The notes beneath the pieces were generated by a model. It saw nothing but the letters and a program-made list of their open reading frames with translations, was not told the origin of the DNA and searched no databases. Of a stretch of 32,000 nt of DNA, positions 2,548 to 22,007 are shown one piece after another. This stretch comes from Polynucleobacter necessarius (GTDB lineage Bacteria; Pseudomonadota; Gammaproteobacteria; Burkholderiales; Burkholderiaceae): assembly GCF_900095195.1 (NCBI RefSeq), contig NZ_LT606950.1, positions 937,207 to 969,206 on the forward strand, in the 5' to 3' direction. Both the position numbers and the translations under genes were made by a program. Each line of letters begins with the position of its first letter. The stretch's first letter is position 1.

Positions 2548-2569
2548 GGTTTTGATGGGCTTAAGAGAT

Positions 2570-3346: not shown

Positions 3347-3395
3347 ATGTGTTTTCAGGGAGTTAAGGGGAAGAAATAGGATAAAAAGAATACCA

Positions 3396-3899
3396 TCAGA
3401 TCAGGTGCAGCCAATGGCCCAATTGGTGCCAAAAGCTATCAGGTACGAGCGTCAATAGCCAGGTCAAGGTCAGATAGCGCAACAATTTACCGATAAACAT
3501 GTAAATCAGACACGGTTGCCAGGCAAGTTTGAGCCAACCCGCTGCCAGGCATAAGGAATCCCCTAAGCCCGGAACCCAAGAGAGGAGCAAAATTTTAGGG
3601 CCCCACTCCTCTAGCCATATTTTGATTTTGGCGTTCTTAGGCTCTCCAATCGATTTCATGCCGCGACGCGCTATCAAGCCCAACCACCAATCAAACATTC
3701 CGCCAAGCGTATTGCCAACGGTTGCGACTAGAATCGCCACCCAAAATAAATGGGGATTTAAGGTGATATAGCCAAAGAGAATCGGCTCTGAGCCAACTGG
3801 TAGCAATGTTGCCGAAACAAATGCGCTAATAAATACTGCAGACAGCCCCACTGAAGGCATACCAAACCACCCAAAAAAATGCGCAAGTGCATGCTCCAT
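3396..3899 (-). CDS. YqaA/DedA-family (SNARE-associated) inner membrane protein
   Basis: Intact 167-aa ORF with the multi-helix pattern LLPVGSEPILFGY...GNTLGGMFDWWLG...LSWVPGLGDSLCLAAGWLK. Confidence 0.75.
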   Translation of the reverse strand: MEHALAHFFGWFGMPSVGLSAVFISAFVSATLLPVGSEPILFGYITLNPHLFWVAILVATVGNTLGGMFDWWLGLIARRGMKSIGEPKNAKIKIWLEEWGPKILLLSWVPGLGDSLCLAAGWLKLAWQPCLIYMFIGKLLRYLTLTWLLTLVPDSFWHQLGHWLHLI

Positions 3900-4055
3900 C
3901 TACAACAGACCTCTATGTGAAAACGTCCTCGAATTGAATACGTCCGAATAGATCTATTTTGCCCTGTTTTTAAGGCCCTCCACGGTTTTTAAATCTTGCT
4001 TAGACTTACTGGTTTACGAGCAGAATCGCTCCAAACCAATAAAAACGAGACAGTC

Positions 4056-5223: not shown

Positions 5224-5242
5224 CCCTGACCGATAACCCACT

Positions 5243-6426
5243 ATGAGCATTCGCCCTCTTGATGGCATTACTGTTGTTTCTCTAGAGCATGCGATTGCTG
5301 CTCCCTTTTGCACCCGTCAACTCGCGGATCTGGGTGCGCGAGTCATTAAGGTAGAGCGCCCTGGCAGTGGGGATTTTGCGCGTGCCTACGACAAGCAAGT
5401 GAAGGGCTAGTCATCCCATTGCGTCTGGGTAAATCGTTCTAAAGAAAGTTTGACGCTGGACTTAAAGCAACCTGCTGCACTAACTGCTTTAAAGAGTCTC
5501 TTAAAAACTGCGGATATCTTAGTGCAGAACCTAGCACCAGGCGCCGCTGCACGAATGGGGCTTACCACAGAACTGTTGCAGAAAGACAACCCCCGATTGA
5601 TCCTGTGTGACATTTCTGGGTATGGCAACGACGGTCCGTATCGGGATAAAAAAGCCTACGATCTGCTCATTCAGAGTGAGGCGGGATTTCTATCGGTCAC
5701 CGGAACCCCAGGGACTCCGAGTAAGGCAGGAAACTCAATTGCCGACATTGCAGCGGGAATGTATGCCTATACGAATATTTTGGCCGCTCTACTGCAAAGA
5801 GGTAAAACGGGTAAAGGCTCAGTGATCGATGTATCGATGTTGGAGTCATTAGGTGAATGGATGAGCTTTCCGTTGTATTACGCCTATGATGGCGCAGATG
5901 CCCCACCAAGAAATGGCGCCTCACATGCCACGATCTATCCGCACGGTCCATTTAAAGCGGGTGATGGCAAGACCGTCATGCTGGATTTACAGAATGAACG
6001 AGAGGGGGCGCAGTTTTGCGAAATCGTTCTGCAAAATTCAGCCCTTGCCACTGATGAACGCTTTGATAAAAACTTTAAGCGCAATGAGAGACGTGCTGAA
6101 TTGCTCGATATCATCAACGCTTGTTTAGTAAGCTGACTTCAGACGGACTGATTGCGAGATTAGAGGGAGCGCAGATTGCGAACGCGCATCTAAATGACAT
6201 GGCAGGCTTATGGAAGCATGAGCAATTAAAAGCACGCCAACGCTGGAAGGAGATTGATACTCCAAATGGCCAAATTCCTGCCCTGCTTCCGCCGGGACTG
6301 AACGATAGTTACGAGTACCGCATGGATCCTATTCCAGCGGTAGGTCAACACACCGAGGCCATTCTCAAAGAACTTGGCATCAGCGATACGGAAATTAAAA
6401 CAATGCTGGACAGCGGGGCAATTTAG
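5243..6426 (+). pseudogene. CaiB/BaiF family III CoA-transferase with 1 nonsense codon and 1 frameshift
   Basis: MSIRPLDGITVVSLEHAIAAPFCTRQLADLGARVIKVERPGSGDFAR is followed by an in-frame TAG at 5408-5410. The same frame then continues: SSHCVWVNRSKESLTLDLK...DLLIQSEAGFLSVTG. A frameshift at about 6118-6122 separates ...LLDIINA from FSKLTSDGLIARLEGAQIANA...GQHTEAILKELG. Confidence 0.9.
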
Positions 6427-7898
6427 AGAAGTGGTGACGCCAAGTGCGCCGCATTTTCTAAATAATGGTGCCAGCGTGGTCGCTTAGCCCACTTTTTAGG
6501 ATCCACTAAATCCGATTGCGCCAGATAGGACTCAATCAGCTTTTCAAACGTTTTACAGAAGTCTTCGTTATAGACAATTAAGCTGATCTCAAAGTTCAAT
6601 CGCAAGCTACGTTGGTCAAAGTTGACCGAACCAAAAATAGCGATCCGCTTATCAATCAACAAACTCTTAGTGTGAAGCAGGCCACCATGAAATTCAGCAA
6701 TCTTCACTCCGGCACCCATCAAGTCCGCATAAAAACTTCGACTACTCCAAGCCACTAGAGTGGAATCATTTAACTTAGGGACAATGAGTGTGACCTTCAC
6801 ACCTCGACCTGCAGCTGCCATTAAAGCCTGTATCAAGCCATCATCTGGCCCAAAATAGGGCGTCGTGATCGTGAGCTCTTCACGCGCATCCATAATGGCT
6901 GAGAGTAGAACTTGATACAAAATGTCATCACGGTAAACGGGGCCTGAAGAAAACCCCTGCGCCAATGCCGCGCCCTCATGCGGTGATGCAGGTGGCTCGC
7001 GATCATTAAAGTGTTTGATGCTGGGATTATCAACACTCCAGTCAAATGCAAATGTCAGCTCAAATTGCGCAGCAACTGGCCCTTCAATACGCACCATCGC
7101 ATCAACCCACTCGCCAACCCCTGAATCTTGCTTAAAAGTCCGTGGGTCAACCATATTCATACTGCCCGTCCAAACAATCGAGCTGTCAATCACAAAAATT
7201 TTGCGATGCAGGCGCAGATCGGCTCGCCGAAACTGAAAACGTCCCACTTGGATTGGCAACGCTTCAGTGACCCGAATACCAGCAGCCCGAAAACGTCCAG
7301 GCCACGGTGATTTAAACCAATCTTTACTGCCTAGGGAATCCAACAAGACTCGACAGGCAATACCGCGTTTTGCCGCGGCAATGAGGGCCTCTCCCACCCT
7401 GTCGGCATCTCCGTCCAATGCCCAAATATAGAACTCTAAATGCAGGCTTTTTTGAGCGCGATTAATCTCGTCAATAAAGTTCTGCAAAATTTTTAGTGAC
7501 TCGGTATGCAATTCAAGCTTATTACCAGAAACCACTGGTGAGCCATTCCGAGATTCCGCCAACAAACTGAGTGCGCGACCTTCTGGCGGTAGTTTTTCTC
7601 GATCAGCGATACATTCTTCTCTCATACATCGAGTAATTCCTTCGTACTCCCGATTCATACGAACAATTTTGCGAGTAAGCTTGCGACCTACTGGACGTTC
7701 ACCAATCAAAATGTACAGCGAAATTCCTAATAACGGCAACATCATGCCAATCAAGAACCAGGCAAACGCAACCCCAACCGGCCTTCTGACGGATATCAAG
7801 CGAAAGCCAAACAGAATCACAATCAATGCATGGAGAATGGGGACCCAAATGAGTGAAACCCCAAAAACCGACCCAAATAGAAACGCTACGATATTCAT
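6423..7898 (-). CDS. cls: Cardiolipin synthase (ClsA type, two N-terminal transmembrane helices)
   Basis: Intact 491-aa ORF with two PLD HKD motifs, LHRKIFVIDSSIVWTGSMN and LHTKSLLIDKRIAIFGSVNFDQRS. Its start overlaps the upstream stop by 4 nt. Confidence 0.9.
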   Translation of the reverse strand: MNIVAFLFGSVFGVSLIWVPILHALIVILFGFRLISVRRPVGVAFAWFLIGMMLPLLGISLYILIGERPVGRKLTRKIVRMNREYEGITRCMREECIADREKLPPEGRALSLLAESRNGSPVVSGNKLELHTESLKILQNFIDEINRAQKSLHLEFYIWALDGDADRVGEALIAAAKRGIACRVLLDSLGSKDWFKSPWPGRFRAAGIRVTEALPIQVGRFQFRRADLRLHRKIFVIDSSIVWTGSMNMVDPRTFKQDSGVGEWVDAMVRIEGPVAAQFELTFAFDWSVDNPSIKHFNDREPPASPHEGAALAQGFSSGPVYRDDILYQVLLSAIMDAREELTITTPYFGPDDGLIQALMAAAGRGVKVTLIVPKLNDSTLVAWSSRSFYADLMGAGVKIAEFHGGLLHTKSLLIDKRIAIFGSVNFDQRSLRLNFEISLIVYNEDFCKTFEKLIESYLAQSDLVDPKKWAKRPRWHHYLENAAHLASPLL

Positions 7899-8647
7899 TC
7901 AAGCTCCAATTGCGCTGTGATACCTAGATGATCCGATAGTTTTAACCATTCGTACAAGATTTCTGCTGAATGAATCTTTAAACCCCGTACATAAATACGA
8001 TCCATCGGCAAAATTGGTTTGACGCTTGGAAAAGTGCGGGCTGGAGAACCCGTCAAGACCTCAAAGACTTCAACAAATCCAGCCTCACGCATCGGTGCAC
8101 TCACTCGATTACGCCAATCATTGAAGTCACCCGCCACAATCGTCGGCGCATCATTAGTCAATTCTTTGATGTAGCGAATGATTTTGGCTAGTTGACGCTC
8201 CCTGCCACGTTCAAACAAAGCTAAGTGCACACAAAAGCAATGAATCGCAGGTGCATTAGCACTCAATTGAATAACACTATGCAATAAGCCACGTTTTTCA
8301 AAACGATAAGCAGAAATATCGTAGTTATTTCCTTTATGCAAAGGATGTTTAGACAAAATGGCATTGCCATGGTGACCATCTGGATACTCCACATTCTTGC
8401 CATAATGCCAGTCATGCCAAAAATCCTCTGACAGAAAGTGTGTCAACTCGGTTAGCGGCCATTGGCTAAACCGTCGCACTCTGCCCCGATGCTCTTGCTG
8501 TAATTCTTGCAAGAACAATAAATCCGGGTGATGGCTGCGCATTCTTTGACGCAATTGATAAATCGTCGAGTGCCGATGCAACGGCGATACACCTTTATGC
8601 ACATTCATACTCATCACAGTAAAGCGGATACTAGTAATTTGGGGCAT
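7895..8647 (-). CDS. Endonuclease/exonuclease/phosphatase (EEP) family protein, YbhP-like
   Basis: Intact 250-aa ORF with motifs MSMNVHKG, LLFLQE, GNAILSK, AGDFNDW and SDHLGI. It is translationally coupled on both sides. Confidence 0.8.
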   Translation of the reverse strand: MPQITSIRFTVMSMNVHKGVSPLHRHSTIYQLRQRMRSHHPDLLFLQELQQEHRGRVRRFSQWPLTELTHFLSEDFWHDWHYGKNVEYPDGHHGNAILSKHPLHKGNNYDISAYRFEKRGLLHSVIQLSANAPAIHCFCVHLALFERGRERQLAKIIRYIKELTNDAPTIVAGDFNDWRNRVSAPMREAGFVEVFEVLTGSPARTFPSVKPILPMDRIYVRGLKIHSAEILYEWLKLSDHLGITAQLELE

Positions 8648-8847
8648 TAAAACTGTCCTGCAGCACGCTGTCGACGTACTCGGGCTAAATAGATCTCACC
8701 TTCCACCAAATCCTGGCACTGCATGCACTTGTTGCAGATTGATGCTTGCTCCCGGAGCTCCTCAATCGAGCTTATGGGGTTAGCATCCAAGTACTCACGT
8801 AGATCAACATCAAAGACGTTGTTGCAAAGGCAAATTACTTCAGCCAT
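8647..8847 (-). CDS. Bfd-like [2Fe-2S]-binding small protein
   Basis: 66-aa ORF with the cysteine pattern C-L-C ... C-NK-C-MQ-C, typical of the BFD-like [2Fe-2S] domain. Its TAA shares one nucleotide with the ATG of the EEP gene (TAATG). Confidence 0.7.
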   Translation of the reverse strand: MAEVICLCNNVFDVDLREYLDANPISSIEELREQASICNKCMQCQDLVEGEIYLARVRRQRAAGQF

Positions 8848-8913
8848 AGGTCAAAAGTTCGGGATATCAGTCTCATTAACGGCATTTTGCCATTGCCTTG
8901 TAGAATCAAGCGC

Positions 8914-9610
8914 ATGTTGACCGCTTTTTCTGATGCCATCACCCTGCTGGCCCACCTTGATGGTGGCGTACTGGGGATCGTCCTGATCTCTTTACAGGTA
9001 AGCCTCACCGCGCTGCTCCTGGGAACCCTGATTGGACTTCACATCGGCGCACTATTGGCCACCGAAGAATTTTCCGGCAAAAAATTCATCATCGTGACCC
9101 TCAATACCCTCATGGGGGTGCCAACGGTTATTGTGGGGGTCATTGTTTACCTCTTACTCTCACGCTCGGGTCCCTTGAGATCCAGGGGATGGCTATTCAC
9201 CCCAAAAGGCATGATTGTGGCTCAAGACGTTATTAACAACCCCATTAATTGCCGCCCATAGTCGCCAAATTTTGGAAGACTCTTGGAAGATTCATTGAGA
9301 CGCCTTTTTGGGCCTACATCTACCAGCCATCTCACGTTATAAATGGTTAATTTGAGATTGTCGCTTCTCGCTAACGATTGCGATTCTTGCGGGATTAGCA
9401 AGAGCGATCTCCGAGGTGGGGGCCGTCATGATTGTGGGTGGCAATATTCAAAATTCCACGCGTACGATAACCACAGCCATCGCGCTGAAAACTAGCAAAG
9501 GCAATTTACCTCTTGCTCTAGCATTGGGCATTATGCTTTTGGGTATTGTATTAATCGCAAATCTATTTACGGTGATAGTTCGTCAAATTGCGGAGCGTCG
9601 TTATGACTAA
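8914..9610 (+). pseudogene. ABC transporter permease (TupB-like tungstate/anion type) with 1 frameshift and 2 nonsense codons
   Basis: MLTAFSDAITLL...LFTPKGMIVAQ is followed by a shift at about 9226. The sequence then reads TLLTTPLIAAHSRQILEDSWKIH-TGA(9296-9298)-DAFLGLHLPAISRYKWLI-TGA(9353-9355)-DCRFSLTIAILAGLARAISEVGAVMIVGGNI... Confidence 0.85.
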
Positions 9611-10198
9611 TATGACTGAACAATTCGAGAAATACATTGAACTCAATAATGTCGTTGTTCGGAGCAACGATCGCGTTATTCTAAATATCCCCCACGCCAC
9701 CATTCCGGCAGATCGCATTGCTGCCTGTATTGGACCAAATGGCGCAGGCAAAATACCCTACTCAAGCTTTTAGATGGCTTGATCAAGCCCGATTCAGGAT
9801 CGATCAACTACTCCTTTGTTACCAAGACAGCATTGGTTGCGCCAGTCTTTGAACTTGAGCTAATTGATGCGATGAAAAAATTACATCTGTCTGATGTTGA
9901 TTAAATTCTCGAATAATGTCTTCAACTTGTTCAGTAGCTTTAGGATCCAAGTTTGCTGTGGGTTCATCCAATAAAACTAAATTGGGCTTCTGGAGTAACG
10001 CCCTCCCCAGACAAAGCCTCTGTCGTTCACCCGCCGATAATTTATGCGCTGGACTATTGGCTAATCCGGACAATCCAATGCGCTGCATCACTCGATCAAC
10101 ATCGCTCTCAGTGATTTCCGAATCGGCATCTCGAACTAATGCCATATTGGTCCTTGCGGATGCCTTGATCATGGGGGTGTGGTGCAATACCAATCTGA
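9603..10198 (+). pseudogene. ABC transporter ATP-binding protein disrupted by a 1-nt deletion at Walker A and by inversion of its 3' two-thirds
   Basis: Walker A (GPNGAGK) and TLLKLLDGLIKPDSGSINYSFVTKTAL are on the plus strand, with a frame break at 9753-9754. The Q-loop region, the signature LSAGERQR, Walker B (LVLLDEPT) and the H-loop (SSH) are on the minus strand in ORF 9819-10193. Confidence 0.85.
9832..10194 (-). other. Inverted segment inside the ABC ATPase gene, bounded by the inverted 6-mers ATTGGT and ACCAAT
   Basis: ATTGGT lies at 9832-9837 and ACCAAT at 10189-10194. Re-inverting the interval gives the in-frame sequence ...YSFVTKTALVLHHTPMIKASARTNMALV... The frame then ends ...QVQRLAQPI-TGA at 10196-10198. 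Confidence 0.8.
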
Positions 10199-10205
10199 GT
10201 AAGGA

Positions 10206-10488
10206 TTATTTGGCTGCTGGTGCTGCTGCAGGCGCAGCTGCAGATACTGGCGATACAAATGGAGGAGGAGCAACGTAAGCCGCAGGAGCTTGTGTTCCAG
10301 CAACCTTGTAACGGTCTGCTACGCGATTCTGGGCTTGGCACAATGATATGCGCCACTCTATCTCCATAAGCAGTCTTCGCCTTGGCTAAAGCAGCTGCCT
10401 CAGCTTGCTCGGGGATAAGTGGAGGGAGTGCTGCCAGTGCAGTGGCGCCAATCAGCGAGCCGAGGAATAAAGCAATGGTATTTTTCAT
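10206..10488 (-). pseudogene. Small secreted Ala/Pro-rich protein downstream of FDH gamma; probable single frameshift
   Basis: AAGGA lies 8 nt upstream of the ATG at 10488. The signal peptide is MKNTIALFLGSLIGATALAA. After ...AKAKTAY the plausible continuation EIEWRISLCQAQNRVADRYKVAGTQAPAAYVAPPPFVSPVSAAAPAAAPAAK* is in another frame, with its stop at 10206-10208. Confidence 0.4.
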
Positions 10489-10498
10489 GGCATTGTCC

Positions 10499-11552
10499 TT
10501 ATTTATTGAGCTTGTCGTACCAGAGCTCATGGTGTTCTTTAGCCCAAGTGGCATCCACATATCCAGTTTTCATTCCATCTATTGAACCTTGCATGCCGAT
10601 GGTACCGATATAGATGTGCCCCATTGCCATCGCAGACATAAGAATCGCCGCGCTACTGTGAATGATATTGGCAATCTGCATCGTGCCACGAGTATATTCA
10701 ATCGTCATAAATGGCACGATCATGTCCAGCACGAAGCCCGGTGCGGAAATGACTAATCCCAAGAAAGTCATGCCGAACCAGAACCAGAACTTCTCACCCA
10801 TGTTGAAGAATCCAGCGGGCACATGCTTGCCACTAAAAATTCCGCCAAAGGACATGAGCCATTCCAAGTCACCCTTGCCTGGCAGATTTTTATGAGCAAA
10901 CAGCAAGAAGAAAACCAAAATACAAATTGTGAATACTGGGCCAGTAAAGTTGTGAATATTTTTGCAAACATTCAAGAAGGAGCCATAAGCCATTCCGCCC
11001 ATTAAAGGCATTGCAAAATATTTTCCATACAAGATCAGTAAGCCAGTAATAGCAAGCGCCAAGAAGCTAAATGCCATCAACTAGTGAACCAAACGGTCGA
11101 ACGCGCTAAATCGCTTGATTTTGACACCCGATAATGGCTCGTGCAGCTTGATAGAACCTTTGATGGTGTACATCGCGATAATGCCGAAGAAGGCAATCGC
11201 CAGTAACCAACCACCGTAAACAGTGATTACGCCATTACGAATCACACGCCACTCTTGACCGGAGCGCTGAATTAAAACGCTAGCCTCTTTGTCTGGAATG
11301 CTGACGTAGTTGTATGGATCGCTATTAGCTGTCGTAAAAATCGATGGATTGGCTGGTTGAGCCTGCGCTTGCGTGCCATTCGCTAACGCATTCGGATTGG
11401 CTGGCGCCGACAAGGGAGGGACATCCACTCCGCTTGGCGATGGCAGAGGAGCCATTGGCGCGCGCTCAGCATAACCAACGCTAGCAAGGCGTAAGCGACA
11501 GTCCTGCGGCCAATATTAGAGTGCGTAGAACCCTAGAAAATGATTGTTTCAT
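10499..11552 (-). pseudogene. fdhC: Formate dehydrogenase cytochrome b (gamma) subunit with 1 frameshift and 1 nonsense codon
   Basis: The signal peptide MKQSFSRVLRTLILAAGLS starts at ATG 11552 and shifts frame at about 11490-11495 into LRLASVGYAERAPMAPLP... The motif RFSAFDRLVH is followed by TAG (11081-11083), where the family has HW. The sequence then continues LMAFSFLALAITGLLILYGK...HIYIGTIGMQGS. Confidence 0.85.
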
Positions 11553-11598
11553 ACACATATCCTTAAATGTTTTGCTTTATTTATTGTTATTTGGATGA

Positions 11599-11835
11599 TC
11601 ACTTAATACGGCTGTATTCATTTTGACCATGAGTGCGCTTATCGGTCGACTCAGTCCAGCTAACTTGATCGCCTGGCGTCCAATTCTTGGTCATAAAGCC
11701 ATTATTTGCACCCATATAAGGAGCAACGTCTGGTCGCTTAGCAGTCTTCGCAGCAATTTCAGGCGGCTCAGAGCACGCAGCCAACAAAGCCCCTGCTGCT
11801 AGGCACATACCGAGAGTTTTGAAATTCACTTTCAT
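11599..11835 (-). CDS. Small lipoprotein encoded between the FDH beta and gamma genes
   Basis: MKVNFKTLGMCLAAGALLAAC contains the lipobox LAAC. The 78-aa ORF is intact. Its ATG overlaps the stop of the beta gene (TAATG). Confidence 0.6.
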   Translation of the reverse strand: MKVNFKTLGMCLAAGALLAACSEPPEIAAKTAKRPDVAPYMGANNGFMTKNWTPGDQVSWTESTDKRTHGQNEYSRIK

Positions 11836-12491
11836 TATTTCGCTCCTGAAATTTTTGCGGCTGGAGTTGGAGTTGGCGCAGGAGTATCCGGACCACCATA
11901 TGCTGTAGTCCAACCAAATGCCTTAGAGCCAGGATACTTGCCGTTCTTCTCGCGATTTGCAACACGCTGATTGAAGATTCCGGAGATGATATCGCTATCA
12001 CCACCAATTGGCGCCTTGGTAGAACACATCTCGGCACAGAGTGGCAATTTACCCTCAGCTAAACGATTGCGACCATATTTTTCAAATTCCGCAACGCTAC
12101 CGTTCTCTTCTAGACCACCGCTACAGAATGTGCACTTATCCATTTTGCTACGTGATCCAAAAGCGCCTTTGCTTTGGAACTGAGATGCATCAAATGGGCA
12201 TGCAAATGAGCAGTAGCCGAAACCGATACAAATATCTTTGTCATGTAGCACCACGCCCTCATCGGTGCGGTAGAAACAATCAACTGGACATACGGCCATA
12301 CAAGGTGCATCTGTACAGTGCATACATGCTACCGAAACCGATTTTTCTTGGCCAATGATGCCATCGTTTACCGTGACGACACGGCGACGATTAACGCCCC
12401 AAGGCACTTCGTTATCATTCTTACACGCGGTCACACATCCGTTGCACTCGATGCATCGCTCTGTGTCGCAAATAAATTTCATTCTTGCCAT
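11835..12491 (-). CDS. fdhB: Formate dehydrogenase iron-sulfur (beta) subunit; the ORF is intact but one cluster-ligand Cys is replaced by Phe
   Basis: 218-aa ORF with an AGGAGA ribosome-binding site. Its ferredoxin motifs are CIECNGCVTAC, CMHCTDAPCMAVCP and CTFC...CAEMC. The third motif reads CIGFGYCSFACP instead of CxxCxxCxxxCP; the Phe codon is at 12219-12221. Confidence 0.8.
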   Translation of the reverse strand: MARMKFICDTERCIECNGCVTACKNDNEVPWGVNRRRVVTVNDGIIGQEKSVSVACMHCTDAPCMAVCPVDCFYRTDEGVVLHDKDICIGFGYCSFACPFDASQFQSKGAFGSRSKMDKCTFCSGGLEENGSVAEFEKYGRNRLAEGKLPLCAEMCSTKAPIGGDSDIISGIFNQRVANREKNGKYPGSKAFGWTTAYGGPDTPAPTPTPAAKISGAK

Positions 12492-12517
12492 TGTGTTCTC
12501 CTGACTTTATTTTTTAC

Positions 12518-15397
12518 TTAGGCAAATTTCTCGATTTGACACATAGTGGTCTTGGTCTCCTGCATCATGGACACTTGGTCACAACCATATGTCGTTGCAG
12601 TATTCACCGCCTCACCTAGCACCACTGGAGCCGCACCATCTGGATGGTACTTACGCAGATCGTTGCCTTGCCACCAGCCCGCAAAGTGGAATGGCCCCCA
12701 AAGCAGTTCCTTGATCAACGCGCTCTGTTACCAAAGCACGCACTTTGATCTTGGCACCAGTCGGTGACTTAACCCAAACGTAATCCCAGTTCTTAATGCC
12801 ACGGTCTGCTGCGGCCTTGGGATTGATCTCCACAAAGTTTTCTTGTTGGAGTTCTGCCAACCATGGATTAGAACGAGTCTCGTCTCCACCACCCTCGTAC
12901 TCAACCAAGCGACCAGAGGTCAAGATTATTGGGAACTTCTCATACAACTTCTGATTCAAGTTCTGATCTTGAACAGTCTTATGGAGTGTTGGCAAGCGCC
13001 AGAAGTTCTTCTTATCCGCTGAAGTTGGGTGCTTACGCATCATTGGTGCGTTTGTGCTGTAAAGCGCTTCGCGGTGAATTGGAATTGGATCCGGGAAGCT
13101 CCAAACAATCGCGCGTGCTTTGGCGTTGCCAAATGGATGGCAATCATTTTTCATCACAACGCGTTGGATACCACCGGATAAGTCGGTTTTCCAGTTCTTA
13201 CCTTCAGCAAGCTTTTTCTCTTCATCGGTTAATTGATCCCACCAGCCGAGTTTTTTCACGAACACGTGATCAAACTCTGGATAACCCGTCTGAATCGCTG
13301 ATCCCTTAGAACAGGAACCATCGCCCGCCAACAAGCTGACACCGTCACGCTCCACACCAAAGTTCGCACGGAAGTTGCCGCCACCCTACATCACACTCTT
13401 GCTGGTGTCATAAAGGTTTGGTGAGCCTGGATGTTTGATAGCAGCCGTTCCATAGTAAGGCCAAGGCAAGCCGTAGTAGTCACCTGTAGTGTCGTATCCC
13501 GTTACAGGATCAACACCGCCACGTGCTTTAAGAGTCTTCGGATCAAATGTAGCCACCATTCTCATGTGCGCTTTGAGACGCTCAGGGGTCTGGACCGGTG
13601 TAACCAATCGTCCAAACAGAGCGGTTGATCTCACGCAAGATATCTTCAATTTGTGGCTCTCTCCATTGTTTGCCAGCAAACTTTGAATTAAGCATCTTGT
13701 AATTTTTAGACAGCTCTTCACCAAATCCAAGACGATCGGCAAAAGCTTGCATGATCACATGATCGGGCACTGATTCGAACAATGGATCAATGACTTTTTC
13801 ACGCCACTGTAGTGAACGATTTAATGCGGTTGCGGAACCGCAGGTTTCGAGCTGCGTCGTAGCAGGTAATAAGTAAACATTGCGATTCTTATTAACAGCT
13901 TGACCTTCGGCAGGTGGCATTGCAGCCATCGCAGCTGTAGCGCTTGGATACGGATCTACGACAACGAGCAAATCCAATTTATCCATCGCACGCTTCATAT
14001 CCAGACCACGGGTCTGTGAGTTTGGCGCATGACCCCAGAAGAACAACCCTTTGACGGTTGTCTGCTGATCAATCATATCGTTCTTTTCGAGAACAGCGTC
14101 CACCCAACGAGATACTGTAGTGCCTGACTTCTCCATCATGTTTGGAGCGTAGCGACCCTTGATTTAGTCGTAGTCAACACCCCAAACGGTTGCGTAGTGC
14201 TTCCAGGATCCAGCCGCTAAACCATAGTAGCCTGGTAATGAGTCTAGATTAGGACCAACGTCGGTTGCACCTTGAACGTTATCGTGACCACGGAAAATAT
14301 TTGTACCACCGCCAGACTTGCCAACGTTACCTAATGCCAACTGCAAGATGCAGGATGCACGCACCATCGAGTTACCAATTGTGTGCTGTGTTTGACCCAT
14401 ACACCATACGATGGTGCTTGGACGATTCTTCGCCATCGTCTCTGCAGCTTTGTACATTTGCACCTCTGGAACACCGCACGCTTCTTCTACCGCAGCAGGC
14501 GTCCACTTCTCCATCACCTCTTTACGGGCAAGATCGAAGTGAAGAGGTCTATCTGTACACACTGTTCCGTGGGTTGCACGGTAGATGCTACTGTTGAGAA
14601 TGGTGTATGGGTACGTCAAGACGCAGTATTTGATTCCCCAAATAATTTGGGCGCACACTGCGCTAAAGGCGCGGCGTTACGTGAACATGGTCATGGCGAC
14701 TATCGTTTACGTTACCCAATGAAGTTGGTTGATGGAAAGTATCAACGTATTTCTTGGGACCAAGCGCTCACAGAAATCACAGCGCAGATGAAGAATATTC
14801 GTGAGAAATACACTCCAGATGCAATGTTCTTTATTGGATCATCCAAACATAACAACGGACAGGCCCACTTACTCCATAAGTTGGTCTCTTTCTTTGGAAC
14901 CAACAATACAGATCACCAGGCGCGTATCTGTCACTCAACCACAGTCGCTGGTGTTGCTAACACCTGGGGCTATGGTGCGATGACCAATAGCTACAACGAC
15001 ATGATGAATGCCAAAGCGGCACTCTATATTGGTTCGAATGCTGCTGAGGCTCACCCGGTATCGATGCTGAGCTTATTGCATGCCAAAGAAAATGGTTGCA
15101 AAGTTATCGTGGTCGACCCACGATACACCCGTACTGCGGCCAAATCTGATCAATACATTCGTATTCGTTCCGGTACTGACATTCCATTCTTGTTTGGTCT
15201 CCTGTATCACATCTTCAAAAATGGTTGGGAAGATAAGAAGTATATCAATGATCGCGTTTACGGCATGGAAGAGATCCGTACCGTCCAACATGGCTTTGCT
15301 TGGTTCGGCAACAGTTCTGCACTAGGCTCAACTGACTCGCTGCGATACCGGCACCAACGCCAACGCCAGAGCGTTTCAAGAATGTGCGTCGATCCAT
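12518..15397 (-). pseudogene. fdhA: Formate dehydrogenase catalytic (alpha, molybdopterin) subunit with 3 frameshifts, 2 nonsense codons and a 758-bp internal inversion
   Basis: The Tat signal MDRRTFLKRSGVGVGAGIAAS starts at 15397 on the minus strand. The Fe-S and active-site region, KIEVKRSICTHCSVGC...HQARICHSTTVAG...VVDPRYTRTA, is on the plus strand (14527-15279). The remainder is on the minus strand, broken at TAA 14164-14166, TAG 13386-13388, about 13595, the C5 run at 12695-12699, and about 15320. Confidence 0.9.
14523..15280 (+). other. Inverted segment inside fdhA, bounded by the inverted 5-mers TACGG and CCGTA
   Basis: TACGG lies at 14523-14527 and CCGTA at 15276-15280. Re-inverting the interval joins ...AEPSKAMLDG-TGKIEVKRSIC... 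at one end. At the other end it joins ...YGMEEIR-KEVMEKWTPAAVEEACG... Both joins are in frame. Confidence 0.85.
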
Positions 15398-15559
15398 TGT
15401 TGGTACCGCCGCTTTTGAACCACGCGACAAGCTACCGATGAGGCGAGAAGTTGTACGACTACTTTATGAGGTATTGGATTTACGAGTCAGACTCATATGT
15501 TGTCCCTGAGAAAGTTTTTTGTTATGAATGATGTATTCGATTAATGAAGAGATTGCGAC

Positions 15560-15779
15560 TTAGATCATGGTGGTTTCGCAAAACTTACGCATGTGCGCAG
15601 TCATTGTTTGACCTTCGCTCTTCTCTTTTGTCGTTCTGCTGATTTCTTGGATCACTGCTTTGCCTACGGCAGTTTGTGAAACCACTTACTGCGCCAACTG
15701 CAGCGCTTGCGCCAAAAAAGAACTTACGACGTGATGGCTTGGCCTCTTCACTTGAAATCACGGTGGATTTTGTGCTCAT
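15560..15779 (-). pseudogene. Small 'formate dehydrogenase region TAT target' protein with 1 frameshift
   Basis: The twin-arginine N-terminus MSTKSTVISSEEAKPSRRKFFFGASAAVGAVSG is in one frame. The family-like C-terminus ...KSEGQTMTAHMRKFCETTMI* (stop 15560-15562) is in another. The shift is near 15680. Confidence 0.6.
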
Positions 15780-15915
15780 GGCATGAGCCTTTAATGGTTA
15801 TTCTTGATATGAGTCAAGTTTAATCACTTATTGCACTTTTGACGTATCGTTATAACAATAATTTGATAAGGGTTTTCCGCCGAAATTCAGGGCTCACATA
15901 TGTTGCAACGCAACA

Positions 15916-16548
15916 TCAAATCATGTCAAAGCTTTGCCCTTCAATTGCCAAAAATTCTCGTGTCAGAGCGGCAATCGGGTGATAGAGATGCATCTGGGGA
16001 ATATTTTCTATTGCATCGCACAATTCGTCGTACCAGGGGCGAATGTGCTCATTGAAAAAAATCCGCTGGTTGGTCAGGTTAGATACCTCGACATCATCGC
16101 TAGCAATTAAGTACCGCATCACCTCGCATAGGGAAGAAATGTGGTCTTCGGTTTCGGTAACTTCATCGGCAGACTCTAGGCCAAACTCCTCTAACGCTTT
16201 GCGAATATTGACTAAAGGCCTCTCGTTAAGGTGGCCCGCCATATAAAAGGAGCCATTCAGGACTATATTGGGTTTGCCGATGCTTATAAAGTTCGTATCG
16301 AATTCTTCCTTCCAGGCGCTGGCAGGATGATCTTTAGTCACTTCCACCACATTCATCCAAGCCTTTGCTAAGGGCGCCTCGTCACTGGAGTCCTGCTGGT
16401 TGGCAGTCGCGGCAATTTGATCCAGTAATTCCTGATCTGGCGGTAAGTGGGAGAATCGAGCAATCAACCCATACAAATCAGCCCTGGCTAGATCCTCAGG
16501 CAATCCAACATCACCCACCTCAGTGGCAGCAGTCTCTTTTTCACTCAT
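15916..16548 (-). CDS. TorD/DmsD-family redox enzyme maturation chaperone (FDH-associated)
   Basis: Intact ORF of about 210 aa starting MSEKETAATE. Its ATG overlaps the upstream TGA (ATGA). It has an acidic helical composition and sits in the usual family position upstream of the FDH genes. Confidence 0.65.
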   Translation of the reverse strand: MSEKETAATEVGDVGLPEDLARADLYGLIARFSHLPPDQELLDQIAATANQQDSSDEAPLAKAWMNVVEVTKDHPASAWKEEFDTNFISIGKPNIVLNGSFYMAGHLNERPLVNIRKALEEFGLESADEVTETEDHISSLCEVMRYLIASDDVEVSNLTNQRIFFNEHIRPWYDELCDAIENIPQMHLYHPIAALTREFLAIEGQSFDMI

Positions 16549-18634
16549 AACTCTTTTTTCACCATATCCACAACGCGACAATCGCCACACATCTTTAGCC
16601 TATCCATAGCTGCACCTGCAAAAGCGCCGTGTGCCCCGAGTTTGGCCAGCATCAAATCCACCATCTTGGCCGTTCCAAATGGTTTGCCGCAACTAATGCA
16701 ATGAAACGCTTGGGTTTGATTGAGTGTCACTTTTTGTTTTCGCCGCTCTACCTTTTGCAGGCGAGGCTGCAGAGCAAGCGCACTCTCTGGGCAAGTTTGC
16801 ACACAGATACCGCACTGAACACACTGTTTCTCAATAAAGGACAAAATGGGCTCATCAGGGTTATCAATCAACACGCCTTCTGGGCAACCGCTCACGCAAG
16901 ACATACACAGGGTGCAGGCATCGGCATTAATCGCTAGACCACCCAATAGTGAGTTCTTGGGTAAACCAACGCCTTCTTCAGGTAATGGTGTCTTGGCTTG
17001 CTTTTGCAAATGTTCGAGTACAGCCTTGAGTGTTTCCCGTTTTTGATTGGAGAATCCAAAGCTTGCAGAGGCGCGCAAATGGCGTTGAGCGCTTCCCGTT
17101 GACGCAAAGCGCCCATCGCTTTTGATACTGCCGACAAATCATCTGGGGCATCTGCCATCACCAAGTAAATGCGCTCATCAAAGCCGTAGGCTTTCAGAAC
17201 AGAGTTGGCTAATTTGGCTTGCGACTCCAAGGCATCACGGTAGGCAGGATCTTCGTCACCACTCAATAGCAACACCACCTCCGCAAAACCATAAGTCAGC
17301 GCGCCTAACCAAAGCTCTAATCCAGTGGAGGCAATATGCTCAATTCCATATGGCAACACAAATGCTAGGAGATTTTCAAATTGCCTAGGAGACACATGCG
17401 CCAGACGACCAACGCTATCAATCACTTGAGTGCCGGTTTTTAAGGTATGTAGAAGCAAGCTGGGGGCGGTAGTGCGATTTTGCTTTTAGCTTCCGCTGTA
17501 TAGGCAGTAGCGAATGTTTTGAGTTCTTTACCCTGATGAGAAACGCTCGGATAGTTGTAGCGCATTGCTCCAGATGGGCATACGGTTGAGCAAGCACCAC
17601 ATCCCATACATAAATTGGGATTTACTTCAACATTGCCTTGCCCATTCTTAAATACAGATTTGATTGCACCAGTTGAGCAAACATCGATACAGACGCTACA
17701 CCCTACTTTGCCATTGCGACCATGCACACAAATTTTTCGTTGTAGACAAAGTATTTTGGCTTTTCAAATTCGCCTACCATCTCTAATAACTGATTGATCG
17801 CGAGTGCCTGATCCAATGGATCATTGCCAGGCGCAAATATCCTTGCGGCGTCTGTGTCATTCGCATTGTTGGATCAGCACGCAAATCTAAAATCAGATCA
17901 AACTCGGCCTCACGCTGACGCTCAACCCGATCAAATGCGATGGCACCAATACTTGCGCATGCAGTAATGCAAGTGCTATGTGATTTGCACTTTTCTAAAT
18001 AAATCTGGAAGGAGAAATCAATCGCATTTTCAGGACAAGCCTCTACACAAACGCCGCACCGAGTGCACATCTCAGGGTCTATTGGATTTTGCAATTCCCA
18101 ATCGACCGAAAAGCTTCCTAGGTAGCCATCAGGTTTTGGCACCGCCCCCGTGTAAATCGGGTAATTACGAGCAATAGGCAAATCACTGGGCTCCGTGCAG
18201 AGTACTGAAACATCTAAAGCACTTGCTACTTTTTCCGCCAAGGGGATAGCTTGCAAACCGGGACCAATAATCAATAGGCGTCCTTGACTAGCGTAGTTCA
18301 TCACTGGAACAGGCTCGGCATCAGGCGTATCCGCCAAAGCCAACAGAGCTGCAATTTTTGGACCTGAGTTTTTTGCTTCCTGTGTCCAACCCGCCACTTC
18401 ACGAATATTCACAAAACGTAGAGGCGCAACCAATGGCTTATCAGATTGTTCTGCAAGCTCAGAAAATAATGCTGACTCTTGGGTGCAAGCCACTACTAAC
18501 TCTTCAGAGCTGTCGAGTGCCTTAATAAAAGTACCAACCTCTTGACGACATAAAGACTGATGCACTGAAACACCCAATGCCTTTGCATCCAAAGGCATGG
18601 TGCCATTACAGTTACATACTAATTTTTGACTCAT
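16545..18634 (-). pseudogene. Large multi-[4Fe-4S] ferredoxin-domain protein of the FDH accessory cluster with 4 frameshifts
   Basis: The protein lies in four consecutive minus-strand ORFs in different frames (17783-18634, 17440-17727, 16934-17458, 16545-17078). The cluster motifs are CTRCGVCVEACP, CSVCIDVCS, CMGCGACSTVCP, CTLCMSCVSGCP and CVQCGICVQTCP. The shifts lie at about 17835-17837, 17734-17738, about 17460 and about 17080. Confidence 0.85.
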
Positions 18635-18814
18635 GAAGAACCTTCTTAGGTTTTTTTCTGATCCGACTTAATCTGCTCGCTATTCACGTTTGCAGATTTT
18701 TCTATCTCTAATAATGATGGGGATGTTAAATTACTTTTAGAGGATTGCTCCAAACCAGGCGGATTTGGCGATACCTCAGAGGAGGATCGGGAGATTGATT
18801 GCCCTCCTTCTGAC

Positions 18815-19221
18815 TTACCGCATCGGTGCCATTAGCCAGGGTTTGAAAGAGCTGAGCATGTCACTTTGCACCATTCGCTCTAACATGCCTGCAGGAAGTG
18901 GATCGGGCTTGGAATAATCATCAATATAGATATCGAGCCTATCCATTACATTGAAGTGGGGATCCGAAAACATTTTCTTTAAAGCGGCCTGCTGTACAGC
19001 GGGGTCAACATCCAGCTTCATAAAAGCAGAAAAATCCGGTGCAAAACGATCGATCTTTTCAACGTCCTCCATGGTGGGTAAGGGAGGGGCCTCTGACGCT
19101 TCTATCTTTGGTTCTGGGCTATTCGTGAAGGAGTCTGCACGGATTCTTTTGCTGACTCACTGGGCTCCTCCTGAATGCCTGACGTACGCCGTGACCAGCG
19201 ACTTAAGAATCCGTCTGCCAT
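18815..19221 (-). pseudogene. DUF3306-family protein with 1 frameshift
   Basis: The N-terminus MADGFLSRWSRR starts at ATG 19221 and reaches a stop after about 39 codons. The conserved C-terminal part, ...PPLPTMEDVEKIDRFAPDFSAFMKLDVDPAVQQAALKKMFSDPHFNVMDRLDIYIDDY, is in another frame (ORF 18815-19072). Confidence 0.65.
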
Positions 19222-19754
19222 CGTTCCCCCGCTGGACACTCAGCACCTTTAAACGATGCAGGCTTATGACGTTTCTTGGGCTCAGGTCGATAGTGCTCGT
19301 CGACATACTCTTGCAACCAAGTGGTATGGTTATCACTCATTGGCACGGCATCGACTGACTCGCCACCATCGAGCAAGCGGGCAGCCTCGTTATAGCTAAC
19401 GCAGATGCGATGGGGCACGGCAATCGTGGATTCAGCTTTGGCTAACTCCAAGGACTCTGCGTCAATGTAACAATCGATATCTTCCTCGAGACGCCACATC
19501 ACAAACCAAGATGGTTTTGTTGCAGACACATTAAGGTAATAGCCCTCGGCCTCATCCAAAAAAAGATTGAGCTCAAAACCGGTAAACAACCAAGACTCTC
19601 CTTCAGCATCTCGACCCAGAAATTGGCCAGTAATAGCATTAGAGGATGTGGTGATAAATTGTCCAAAATCCGGCAACACCTCATGAGGTACCCATCGATA
19701 GGAGACCCAAGGATTATCGAGGTGCTGTTTACGCATCAATACCGCAAAGCGCAT
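19203..19754 (-). CDS. DUF3305-family protein (FDH accessory cluster)
   Basis: Intact 183-aa ORF directly upstream of DUF3306, overlapping its start. The family assignment rests on gene context and remembered sequence character. Confidence 0.55.
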   Translation of the reverse strand: MRFAVLMRKQHLDNPWVSYRWVPHEVLPDFGQFITTSSNAITGQFLGRDAEGESWLFTGFELNLFLDEAEGYYLNVSATKPSWFVMWRLEEDIDCYIDAESLELAKAESTIAVPHRICVSYNEAARLLDGGESVDAVPMSDNHTTWLQEYVDEHYRPEPKKRHKPASFKGAECPAGERWQTDS

Positions 19755-19766
19755 TGGTCTATAGCC

Positions 19767-20855
19767 TTAGGTGTTTTGAACCACAATGTTTGGAAACTTG
19801 CTGCTCATATCTTTTGCCAGACTTCCTACCTTGATCGCCACTTGGCGCGCAATCGCCTTGTAAATATTGCTAATGGCGCCATCTGGATCGGCAACTACCG
19901 TTGGACGCCCTGCATCCGCTTGCTTGCGAATCGACAGATTTAATGGCAACGCGCCCAAAAATTCAACGCCGTATTCTTTGCACATTTTCTCGCCACCACC
20001 GACTCCAAATACATGCTCTTCATGCCCGCAACTTGGGCAAACATAGGTGCTCATGTTTTCAATAATGCCGATGATGGGCACGCCAACCTTTTCGAACATC
20101 TTTAAGCCTTTGCGGGCATCTAGCAATGCAATATCTTGAGGCGTAGTCACAATGACAAAGCCTGTTACGGGAACCTTTTGCGATAAGGTCAACTGAATAT
20201 CACCAGTACCCGGTGGCATATCCACAATCAAATAATCCAAATCACGCCAACGGGTTTGACGCAGTAGCTGCTCTAGCGCAGACGTCACCATCGGACCACG
20301 CCACACCATTGGCGCATCCTCTTCAATCAAAAAGCCGATAGAACTTGCTTGAAGTCCGTGCCCTTCCATCGGCTCAATCGTATTCTCCTCGACAGAATCT
20401 GGGCGACCAGTAATGCCGAGCATCATCGGTTGACTGGGTCCGTAAATATCAGCATCCAAAATCCCCACTTGCGCACCTTCAGCCGCAAGCGCTAGCGCCA
20501 AGTTGACTGCTGTTGTCGATTTACCTACGCCACCCTTGCCGCTGGCAACGGCAATAATATTTTTAATACCAGGTAATAACTTGATGCCACGCTGAACGAC
20601 ATGAGCAACAATTTGACTGCTAACGGTCACGCCCACGTTTTTCACGCCCGGTAATTCACGCAAAGCAGTAATTACCGTTTTGCGGATAGCATCAAATTGA
20701 CTTTTGGCGGGATAGCCTAAGACAACATCCAAAGAGACATCGCCGTCATCCACTTTCAAATTTTTAATATTCTTTGCAGCAACGAAATCAATGTGGGTAT
20801 TGGGATCAACGACGTTTTTTAAGGCGGCTTGAACAGCCTCTACAGTTACAGACAC
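19767..20855 (-). CDS. apbC: Fe-S cluster carrier ATPase ApbC/Mrp
   Basis: Intact 362-aa ORF with an N-terminal DUF59-like domain. It has the deviant Walker A motif ASGKGGVGKST and the CPSCGH cluster-binding motif. Confidence 0.9.
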   Translation of the reverse strand: MSVTVEAVQAALKNVVDPNTHIDFVAAKNIKNLKVDDGDVSLDVVLGYPAKSQFDAIRKTVITALRELPGVKNVGVTVSSQIVAHVVQRGIKLLPGIKNIIAVASGKGGVGKSTTAVNLALALAAEGAQVGILDADIYGPSQPMMLGITGRPDSVEENTIEPMEGHGLQASSIGFLIEEDAPMVWRGPMVTSALEQLLRQTRWRDLDYLIVDMPPGTGDIQLTLSQKVPVTGFVIVTTPQDIALLDARKGLKMFEKVGVPIIGIIENMSTYVCPSCGHEEHVFGVGGGEKMCKEYGVEFLGALPLNLSIRKQADAGRPTVVADPDGAISNIYKAIARQVAIKVGSLAKDMSSKFPNIVVQNT

Positions 20856-20996
20856 TACCTTCTCCTCTGATGCGTAACCCTGACAAACCCTATTGGGCAG
20901 GGAGAGTTACAAAATGTAATTTTTATGAATAGTATTTAGATTAACCGCACCAGCCAAAAATTGCTTGAATTGGCTCTAGGGAAATGGTGTGTTAAA

Positions 20997-22007
20997 TCAG
21001 AAAATCAACAAACTTAGGTAATACACGAGCATAGACATCAGGGCTGTTGCTGGGATAGTGAAAATCCATGCCCAAACAATATTTCCAGCTACGCCCCAAC
21101 GAACTGCGCTAGCGCGCTGAGTCGAGCCCACACCTACAATAGCCCCTGTGATCGTATGGGTAGTTGAGACTGGAATCCCAATAGCAGTTGCAGCAAACAA
21201 GGTAATGGCGCCACCAGTTTCGGCACAAAATCCGCCAACAGGCTTTAACTTGGTCAATTTCTGACCCATTGTTTTGACAATGCGCCAGCCACCAAACATA
21301 GTTCCCAATGCAATCGCTATATAGCAACTAATAATGGTCCACGTTGGCGGCATTTTTGCACCCGCCTCAGCGTAACCCGTAATAATCAAAAGCAACCAGA
21401 TAATGCCAATCGTCTTTTGCGCATCGTTTCCGCCGTGACCCAGGCTGTAGGCACTTGCCGATACCAGCTGTAATCGACGGAACCAGCGATCAGTCTTTGC
21501 CATGGTAGCGTTTCTGCATACCCAAGATACCAGCAACATGATCAACGATCCCAGCAGAAACCCAACCATCGGGGAGATGAAAATAAACGAAACGGTCTTG
21601 ATGATTTCAGTCCAAACCAGGCCATCTACTCCAGCTTTTGGCAGAGCTGCACCAACCAAGCCACCAATCAAGGCATGAGAAGAGCTTGATGGAATACCGT
21701 AGTACCAAGTCACAACATTCCAGACAATAGCGCCAACGAGCGCACCAAAAGTTACATGCAAATCCACCGCATCAGGATGAACGATGCCCTTGCCAACGGT
21801 TGCCGCAACACTCAGATGAAAGATAAAAATTGCAAGGAAGTTAAAGAAAGCAGCGAAGATCACCGCTTGTTGAGGCTTTAAAACACCAGTTGATACGACC
21901 GTTGCAATAGAATTCGCCGCATCATGAAATCCATTCATGAAGTCGAAACTGAGCGCCAATATTACTAAAAGCGCTACTACCCAAAAAGCTACTTCGGTCG
22001 CCGGCAA
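20997..22007 (-). CDS. pit: PiT-family inorganic phosphate transporter
   Basis: Intact 336-aa ORF with a probable TTG start. The PiT signature FDFMNGFHDAANSIAT is repeated as GHGGNDAQKTIG. The protein is polytopic. Confidence 0.85.
   Translation of the reverse strand: MPATEVAFWVVALLVILALSFDFMNGFHDAANSIATVVSTGVLKPQQAVIFAAFFNFLAIFIFHLSVAATVGKGIVHPDAVDLHVTFGALVGAIVWNVVTWYYGIPSSSSHALIGGLVGAALPKAGVDGLVWTEIIKTVSFIFISPMVGFLLGSLIMLLVSWVCRNATMAKTDRWFRRLQLVSASAYSLGHGGNDAQKTIGIIWLLLIITGYAEAGAKMPPTWTIISCYIAIALGTMFGGWRIVKTMGQKLTKLKPVGGFCAETGGAITLFAATAIGIPVSTTHTITGAIVGVGSTQRASAVRWGVAGNIVWAWIFTIPATALMSMLVYYLSLLIF

Follow-up and report, generated by a model that had tools for sequence, protein, structure and literature searches.

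The formate dehydrogenase locus and its decay

The window (here, the whole 32,000-nucleotide stretch of Polynucleobacter necessarius DNA that was analyzed) contains a formate dehydrogenase operon on the minus strand. Its alpha-subunit gene, fdhA (12518-15496), is a pseudogene for a Tat-exported molybdopterin formate dehydrogenase, whose 992 codons can be reconstructed. The gene for the iron-sulfur subunit, fdhB (11835-12491), has an intact reading frame, and its product is identical to WP_114662663.1 from Polynucleobacter necessarius. An FdhB that is 97% identical was also met on a 1.9-kb contig (Logan), which stops short of the inversion described below. The gene for the cytochrome b subunit, fdhC (10502-11488), is again a pseudogene; tblastn finds one internal stop, and the reading frame is split at 11080/11081. 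About 10 of the 21 neighboring genes are pseudogenes by the same tool.

The type of enzyme is recognized from a twin-arginine motif (RRTFLK), a cysteine motif (CTHCSVGC), and the adjoining fdhB and cytochrome b genes, all features of the FDH-N/O type. The FdhA orthologs carry the Pfam domains Molybdop_Fe4S4 (PF04879), Molybdopterin (PF00384), and Molydop_binding (PF01568). Their matches to the NCBIfam Fdh-alpha and FDH-N alpha models lie below the equivalog cutoffs. The original prediction had put the Tat signal at 15397 and the end of the gene at 12518, and both are found there, the former as the motif MDRRTFLKR, the latter as a stop codon at 12518-12520.

Between these ends, fdhA is heavily damaged. 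In tblastn, the match of P. tropicus FdhA residues 1-991 to 15496-12521 is broken into six pieces, which fall in four frames. Codon-wise alignment to the ortholog L004 locates three premature stops on the minus strand: at codon 11 (CAA to TAA, 15464-15466), upstream of the Tat motif; at codon 445 (TGG to TAA, 14164-14166), where the open reading frame also breaks; and at codon 704 (GAA to TAG, 13386-13388). Three frameshifts accompany them. One is a 2-bp deletion in codons 61-62 (approximately 15312-15316), downstream of the Tat signal and upstream of the inversion, placed by MAFFT and matched by a change of tblastn frame between the pieces at 15496-15308 and 15318-15280. The other two are 1-bp insertions, near codon 636 (approximately 13592-13596) and near codon 933 (approximately 12697-12701), found both in the MAFFT indel list and by tblastn. 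None of these six lesions had been mentioned in the original prediction. Together with the inversion, they bring the lesions of fdhA to seven and make it a pseudogene whose reading frame is not intact; the gene need not, therefore, have been inactivated by the inversion.

The reconstructed translation is identical to the L004 FdhA at 931 of 993 positions (94%). At sites that are invariant in 11 relatives, the 2979 bp of the gene carry 47 changes unique to this lineage, 29 of them nonsynonymous and 18 synonymous; the relatives, taken one at a time, have 0-12 nonsynonymous changes, against the 29 found here. Judged from its substitutions, these counts show that fdhA is under relaxed constraint.

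The inverted segments and their ends

The locus was compared with those of more than 10 free-living Polynucleobacter genomes, of P. tropicus, of freshwater metagenome contigs, and of a second P. necessarius symbiont. Against the free-living locus L001, blastn returns three matches in succession. Window positions 10213-14526 pair with 11061-6751 on the minus strand, 14523-15280 with 5997-6754 on the plus strand, and 15276-18663 with 6001-2609 on the minus strand again. This minus/plus/minus pattern recurs with nine more free-living Polynucleobacter loci, and also with P. tropicus (L163), with metagenome loci (L105, for example), and with the second symbiont (L162). In every relative, an opposite-strand match is set between colinear ones, and it delimits a block on the plus strand at 14523-15280. 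The block is 758 bp long when both arms are counted, and its spacer (14528-15275) is 748 bp.

On the strand opposite to the rest of the gene, the block carries FdhA codons 74/75-325, which cover the 4Fe-4S domain together with the beginning of the Mo-bisPGD domain, active-site cysteine included. tblastn places residues 74-324 at 14527-15279 in frame +1, with 95% identity and no stops. When the block is flipped back, one colinear match of 3100 bp to the intact orthologs results. Both junctions are present, with no indel and with zero bases lost or gained; at each, fdhA sequence is joined straight to fdhA sequence, with no IS copies or remnants at the breakpoints. The inversion can be resolved to the base because intact orthologs exist that are about 84% identical. 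The nearest relatives that could be used to date it stand at about 82-85% DNA identity.

The original prediction, made from the letters of the window alone, had drawn the inversion with just these ends. Alignment to intact free-living orthologs gives one inverted segment that opposes both of its flanks in all relatives aligned, and flipping it rejoins AMLDG to TGKIEV and EEIR to KEVMEKWTP, both in frame, as had been proposed. The derived state is that of the present lineage; the free-living relatives and the second symbiont are mutually colinear, with one gene each. Taken together, the alignments support an inversion that is real, balanced, and specific to this lineage, within what was one fdhA gene in the ancestor.

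The ends of the alignments overlap exactly on TACGG (14523-14527) at the left and on CCGTA (15276-15280) at the right, both read on the plus strand, and so coincide with the 5-bp inverted microhomology first noted. It reaches no further than these 5 bp, and is nevertheless more than chance would provide. In simulations on this sequence, inverted microhomology of at least 5 bp occurs at 0.5-0.8% of random breakpoint pairs. CCGTA is also found at the right-arm site of some relatives (L004, L007, L015, and L020). The left-arm site reads TAAGG, or like CAAGG, in all close relatives. Here, the C of TACGG is a lineage-unique change, K74T; codon 74 is a lysine codon (AAR) in 11 of 11 close relatives, and encodes threonine in the more distant L015 and L017. 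Because that base is unique to the lineage, a perfect 5-bp left arm before the event is only something that we infer. The ancestral arms may have matched at only four of five positions, or the junctions may have formed through 2-bp homologies.

The block itself was originally described as a lesion-free run on the plus strand, and 254 codons without a stop are indeed found within it. Given six lesions in the other 741 codons, the absence of any from the 252 codons of the block has p of about 0.13. Selective preservation of the block was considered and rejected, because its density of unique changes (0.052 per codon) equals that of the rest of the gene (0.043 per codon). Some of these changes fall at residues that are otherwise invariant (W193L, R191H, Y188H, and E185G, for example).

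A second small inversion lies 4.3 kb from the first, in a pseudogene for an ABC-transporter ATPase. Its 351-bp spacer (9838-10188) is on the minus strand and gives an opposite-strand match in all relatives; the remaining part of the pseudogene, at about 9603-10206, is on the plus strand. tblastn puts ATPase residues 1-79 on the plus strand, and residues 78-199 in frame -1 at 10193-9828. The arms, ATTGGT (9832-9837) and ACCAAT (10189-10194), both given as read on the plus strand, are an exact 6-bp match, for which simulation with random breakpoints gives P=0.002-0.005. Un-inverting 9838-10188 restores a colinear alignment. Unlike the fdhA event, this one is accompanied by a loss: about 130 bp of the 3' end of the ATPase gene are deleted, at or near the right junction. 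The right arm differs at three of its six positions from the GCACAT-like sequence of the relatives.

Mobile elements and recombinases were sought in several ways. A Pfam scan of the open reading frames in 1-8647 found no recombinase or transposase; beyond this region the window is colinear with the housekeeping genes of relatives, and throughout 2262-32000 colinearity excludes an inserted element. The ends of the fdhA inversion have no long inverted repeat (the longest in the scan is about 24 nt, and imperfect), nor any of recognition length (more than 12 bp), only the 5 bp. Pfam, repeat, and synteny checks thus agree with the original prediction that no IS element, recombinase gene, or long inverted repeat is nearby. 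One perfect 13-nt inverted repeat (14395-14407 and 14600-14612) spans the left breakpoint, and was set aside; it lies off the junctions, and goes back to a direct repeat that the ancestral gene had by chance. Within 2262-32000, alignment to relatives reveals no inversion of at least about 100 bp beyond the two described, and an in-place reverse-complement scan for inversions of 13-260 bp returned conserved palindromes only.

Origin of the inversions

We put at roughly four in five the probability that the fdhA inversion arose by recombinase-independent, microhomology-mediated illegitimate recombination, and was fixed under relaxed selection. The setting is an obligate-symbiont lineage of P. 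necessarius whose formate dehydrogenase operon is decaying. There, one balanced event would have turned the 748 bp between TACGG and CCGTA, with no recombinase and no mobile element taking part. The most likely route would be two template switches between short inverted repeats within one replication fork ("inverted-repeat spacer inversion"); two breaks rejoined through microhomology would deliver the same product. The 748- and 351-bp spacers are exact reverse complements, and near enough for one replication fork, which may have been involved in both inversions. The preference for template switching over break rejoining, like the order of the lesions, is what we infer from these products. The flip cuts the block with the 4Fe-4S domain and the active site off on both sides, from the Tat signal and from the remaining enzyme. 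It would persist because fdhA is under relaxed selection. Weighing against this account is the sister P. necessarius symbiont, whose fdhA is equally decayed and has no such inversions; they are therefore not a general feature of decay.

A variant of this mechanism is possible, although it is the less probable form. Here, TAAGG (Lys74) would have faced CCGTA with four matches in five, and one event would have both inverted the spacer and homogenized the left arm, giving K74T. That K74T is unique to the lineage, against AAR in 11 of 11 close relatives, fits this idea; so does the right arm of the second inversion, which departs from the relatives at half of its positions and yet complements the left arm perfectly. 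Template switching is, moreover, documented to invert a spacer and homogenize its arms together (PMC8604942). However, at 47 changes in 2979 bp, the probability that chance alone puts a lineage-unique change among the 10 arm bases is about 0.15, and the threonine found in L015 and L017 makes an earlier, neutral K74T equally plausible. Homogenization would also have to leave the right arm unchanged, which would seem to need either mismatch correction or a second switch just 2 nt further on.

The remaining explanations call for less weight. An inversion absent from the organism could, of course, have been produced by chimeric molecules, from whole-genome amplification for instance, or by an assembler. 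Amplification chimeras can join inverted nearby sequence at short microhomologies, and two such features within one window would suit them. Nevertheless, an artifact is improbable. Arms of only 5-6 bp fall far short of what would mislead an assembler, and the fdhA event is perfectly reciprocal, with both junctions present and nothing lost or duplicated, so that two independent, exactly complementary chimeras would have to dominate coverage. The second inversion, with its extra deletion and its diverged arms, looks as an older, real event would. A programmed switch, in which a site-specific recombinase would turn fdhA on and off or create a new plus-strand gene, might be suggested by the uninterrupted block, which extends into a plus-strand reading frame of 352 codons (14383-15441). 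This is very nearly excluded: the window has no recombinase gene, the inverted repeats at the ends do not exceed 5 bp, and three stops and three frameshifts leave fdhA dead in either orientation. In the protein collection, no match covers more than 76% of the 352-aa product, and therefore none spans a junction; the junction-spanning tails of the frame are common to no homolog. The lesion-free state of the block, at the p given above, is not telling, and the block gathers changes at invariant residues. Finally, the arrangement might be thought ancestral, with two separate genes, and the colinear gene of the relatives derived. This can be dismissed, since one colinear gene is found in all 80 genome loci and in the metagenome loci, with an intact 992/993-codon gene in L001, L002, L004, and L163, and the other P. 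necessarius symbiont is colinear as well.

With two such flips in 30 kb, there is a hint of a mutational signature specific to the lineage. It is tentatively suggested that the lineage has a raised genome-wide rate of inversions below 1 kb at 5-6-bp inverted microhomologies, carrying the mark of template switching, perhaps because a fork-protection or recombination function was lost. The basis for this is the count of two events in about 30 kb, where the sister symbiont has none in the 18 kb that correspond, and the fact that in each event one arm has lineage-specific bases that make the arms perfect.

Known inversions and genome reduction

Inversions between short inverted repeats are not new. 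In E. coli, RecA-independent inversions of hundreds of bp, in chromosome or plasmid, reportedly occur without a site-specific recombinase; their repeats are said to be about 12-23 bp or longer, and thus longer than the 5-6-bp arms found here. The Hin, Gin, and Fim switches and the shufflons likewise flip a discrete segment that overlaps a coding region, but here there is no invertase, no repeat of recognition length, and a gene that is dead both ways.

A closer counterpart is the inversion of inverted-repeat spacers by DNA-polymerase template switching, of the Ripley type, in an intermolecular two-switch model (Abraham and Hazkani-Covo, 2021; PMC8604942). Shared with it are perfect short arms, an exact reverse complement, the absence of gain or loss, and the absence of a recombinase, and both of the present spans are compatible with the two-switch model. 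Homogenization of the arms is possible there as well, and may apply to K74T. Those cases, however, have spacers of 2-5 bp and arms of at least 9 bp in functional genes, whereas the present spacers are 748 and 351 bp, with arms of 5-6 bp, in pseudogenes. The short-range inversions, or U-turn-like rearrangements, of organelle genomes (Zampini et al., 2015; PMC4417113) are replication-linked and RecA-independent, and occur in a genome of endosymbiotic lifestyle. They share with the present case a length below 1 kb and junction microhomology of at least 5 bp (theirs is typically 5-9 bp). Theirs, however, have a single U-turn junction, are mostly below 50 bp, and affect a minority of molecules; here, a balanced inversion with two junctions is fixed in the consensus genome. 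For Polynucleobacter, full-text searches, which did not reach Boscaro et al. (2013, 2017), turned up no description of intragenic inversions.

The fdhA flip is thus a fresh case of a type of mutation already known. Accounts of how the genomes of young obligate symbionts shrink usually deal in point lesions, deletions, and IS-mediated rearrangements. The present case adds that recombinase-free flips at microhomologies also feed the formation of pseudogenes in an IS-poor genome. Pseudogene callers limited to stops and frameshifts miss such inversions, and because a flip splits one gene into apparent open reading frames on opposite strands, mis-annotation is possible. Should the flips prove frequent across the genome, a specific defect of replication or repair in this lineage would be indicated; if the signature is true, a reducing genome free of IS elements would regularly inactivate genes by such flips.

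Pseudogene decay has reportedly been described in the P. necessarius symbionts of Euplotes. The present genome shares with them the group of organisms, massive pseudogenization with no mobile elements inserted in the region, and the loss of fdhA, which has occurred in parallel in another symbiont strain. Stops, frameshifts, and deletions make up the lesions of the sister strain and the others seen in the window; intragenic inversions bounded by microhomology are found in this lineage only.

Inversion within the formate dehydrogenase alpha gene

In the window, the gene for the formate dehydrogenase (FDH) alpha subunit, fdhA, is a series of minus-strand fragments, as seen in both the ORF listing and the raw sequence. 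The listing places these fragments at 12518-12718, 12651-13355, 13386-13742, 13582-14139, and 14164-14658, with the fragment bearing the Tat signal at 15245-15430. They are interrupted by a plus-strand ORF of 352 codons (14383-15441), whose central 252 codons read TGKIEVKRSICTHCSVGC...ARICHSTTVAG...YGMEEIR. The original prediction was that this block is a 758-bp inversion (14523-15280) bounded by TACGG and CCGTA, which the raw sequence carries at 14523-14527 and 15276-15280, respectively.

Comparison with relatives bears this out. One genome was scanned for each species, which gave 80 loci encoding the block; those nearest to it are from free-living Polynucleobacter, with 90-96% protein identity. 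When the window is aligned by blastn to L001, a free-living relative, the outer stretches 10213-14526 and 15276-18663 match L001 11061-6751 and 6001-2609, respectively, both on the minus strand, and 14523-15280 between them matches 5997-6754 on the plus strand. The ends of these HSPs overlap precisely on the two pentamers, placing the breakpoints where they had been predicted. The same minus/plus/minus pattern is found against nine more free-living genomes, P. tropicus (CP028942), freshwater metagenome contigs, and the genome of another P. necessarius symbiont (L162, LT606951.1).

The interval 14523-15280 was then reverse-complemented in silico, and the gene region realigned to intact orthologues of 992-993 codons. 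This gave a single colinear HSP of 3100 bp with 84.8% identity to P. yangtzensis (L004). In the codon-wise alignment, 931 of 993 residues are identical, and ...AMLDG is rejoined to TGKIEV... and ...EEIR to KEVMEKWTP..., both in frame as proposed. An ancestral arrangement of two separate genes is refuted; in the relatives, P. tropicus and L162 included, fdhA is arranged as one colinear gene, and none of them shares the split. The inversion is real, and its original interpretation is supported.

Decay of fdhA and its neighborhood

The window's fdhA is dead even apart from the inversion. Against orthologues, it carries six further lesions: stops at codon 11 (15466), codon 445 (TGG>TAA, 14166), and codon 704 (13388), a 2-bp deletion near 15314, and 1-bp insertions near 13594 and 12699. 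Counted at sites that do not vary among 11 relatives, it carries 29 nonsynonymous and 18 synonymous changes of its own. The individual relatives have 0-12 nonsynonymous changes, and selection on fdhA is therefore relaxed. The inverted block is decaying at the same rate as the remainder of the gene, with 0.052 unique changes per codon against 0.043. Nor is it remarkable that the block contains no stop, since six lesions in the other 741 codons lead one to expect about 2 in its 252, with a probability of about 0.13 of finding none. The inversion, probably mediated by microhomology, belongs to a type of mutation already described and is one of several pseudogenising lesions, in a symbiont whose gene decay was known before.

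About 10 of the 21 genes in common with P. tropicus in 2500-22000 are pseudogenes, through frameshifts, stops, and partial deletions. These include genes for a 696-aa polyferredoxin (16545-18634), the cytochrome b subunit (fdhC, 10502-11488), both subunits of an ABC transporter (the permease, 8914-9604, and the ATPase, about 9603-10206), a CoA-transferase (5243-6423), an acyl-CoA dehydrogenase (4056-5220), and a DUF3306 protein. Open reading frames are kept by fdhB (iron-sulfur subunit, its product identical to WP_114662663.1 of P. necessarius), a TorD-like chaperone, Mrp, PHO4, PLD, and an SDR. At the DUF3306 gene, all DNA alignments to relatives show a gap of about 190 bp (18663-18857), and of the 200 residues tblastn recovers 46-132 only; the sequence here is either locally deleted or highly diverged.

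In L162, fdhA is independently broken into at least five ORFs (L162 7000-10000), in a region that is fully colinear with P. tropicus across 18.6 kb, with no inversions. The fdh operon has thus been lost in parallel in this sister symbiont, through different lesions.

The ABC transporter beside the operon (window 8914-10206; P. tropicus 12305-13700) includes a permease similar to the tungstate permease TupB, with a match of 166 bits that lies under the NCBIfam equivalog cutoff of 320; the permease passes the generic ABC_perm1 model. The transporter may once have delivered the metal for the FDH cofactor, becoming dispensable along with FDH.

A second inversion and the probable mechanism of both

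Synteny mapping revealed that 9838-10188 is likewise inverted against every relative compared, the other P. necessarius symbiont included. This 351-bp spacer (9832-10194 with arms) lies in the ATPase pseudogene, which has its 5' part on the plus strand, and flipping it back restores colinearity. Its arms, ATTGGT (9832-9837) and ACCAAT (10189-10194), are exact reverse complements over 6 bp. Relatives differ from the right arm at 3 of 6 positions, and at or near the right junction the gene has lost about 130 bp from its 3' end. In 2262-32000, alignments to relatives gave no more inversions of about 100 bp and above, and an in-place reverse-complement scan at 13-260 bp gave conserved palindromes only. 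Short palindromes at 18577-18598, 26667-26691, 28024-28036, and 29032-29045 are kept in many relatives in forward orientation (identity at least 0.9), and were rejected as inversions.

At the fdhA breakpoints, the inverted homology covers 5 bp and not a base more. When breakpoint pairs of equal span were drawn at random on the window sequence, 0.5-0.8% of 200,000 trials gave at least 5 bp. The expectation that no IS element, recombinase gene, or long inverted repeat lies nearby also held. In 8500-17500, no inverted repeat exceeds about 24 nt (imperfect) and none lies at the junctions; ORFs of 1-8647 contain no transposase or recombinase domain; 2262-32000 is colinear with relatives, leaving no space for an inserted element.

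That the inversion is an assembly artefact is improbable, as an assembler could not be misled by arms as short as 5-6 bp, and two exactly complementary chimeric junctions would be needed. A programmed switch and a new plus-strand gene at 14383-15441 are both excluded: the window has no invertase and no long inverted repeats at the ends of the block, fdhA carries the other lesions, constraint within the block is relaxed, and the junction-spanning tails of the plus-strand ORF are found in no homologue.

Both inversions are balanced or nearly so, with spacers of 748 and 351 bp between perfect 5-6-bp arms, and lie in genes under relaxed selection, with no recombinase or mobile element. We infer that they arose by illegitimate recombination, mediated by microhomology and independent of any recombinase. 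Two-switch intermolecular template switching, in the published model, retains the arms and reverse-complements the spacer (PMC8604942), and would give exactly the product seen; two double-strand breaks rejoined via microhomology could give the same sequence. Published spacer inversions (PMC8604942) have longer arms and much shorter spacers than these two. In organelle genomes, short-range inversions (under 1 kb) with 5-9-bp microhomology arise from replication stress independently of RecA (PMC4417113). The interest of the two events grows if they reflect a lineage-specific, genome-wide signature.

One base of the left arm calls for caution. The C at 14525 belongs to codon 74 of fdhA, where AAG>ACG gives K74T, a change unique to this lineage among close relatives (AAR, Lys, in 11 of 11; Thr in the more distant L015 and L017), and supplies the base that makes the arms perfectly complementary. 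K74T may be older than the inversion, completing the 5-bp repeat. Alternatively, arms matched at 4 of 5 positions may have been homogenised by the inversion event itself, an effect described for template switches at inverted repeats that match imperfectly (PMC8604942). A unique change would fall by chance within the 10 arm bases with a probability of about 0.15, so either reading is plausible.

The left breakpoint lies between the two copies of a perfect 13-nt inverted repeat, ACCCATACACCAT / ATGGTGTATGGGT (14395-14407 and 14600-14612). In the ancestral orientation, the copies formed a direct repeat within fdhA (codons ~99-103 and ~363-367), present by chance; as they now stand, they could support another inversion, with a 192-bp spacer.
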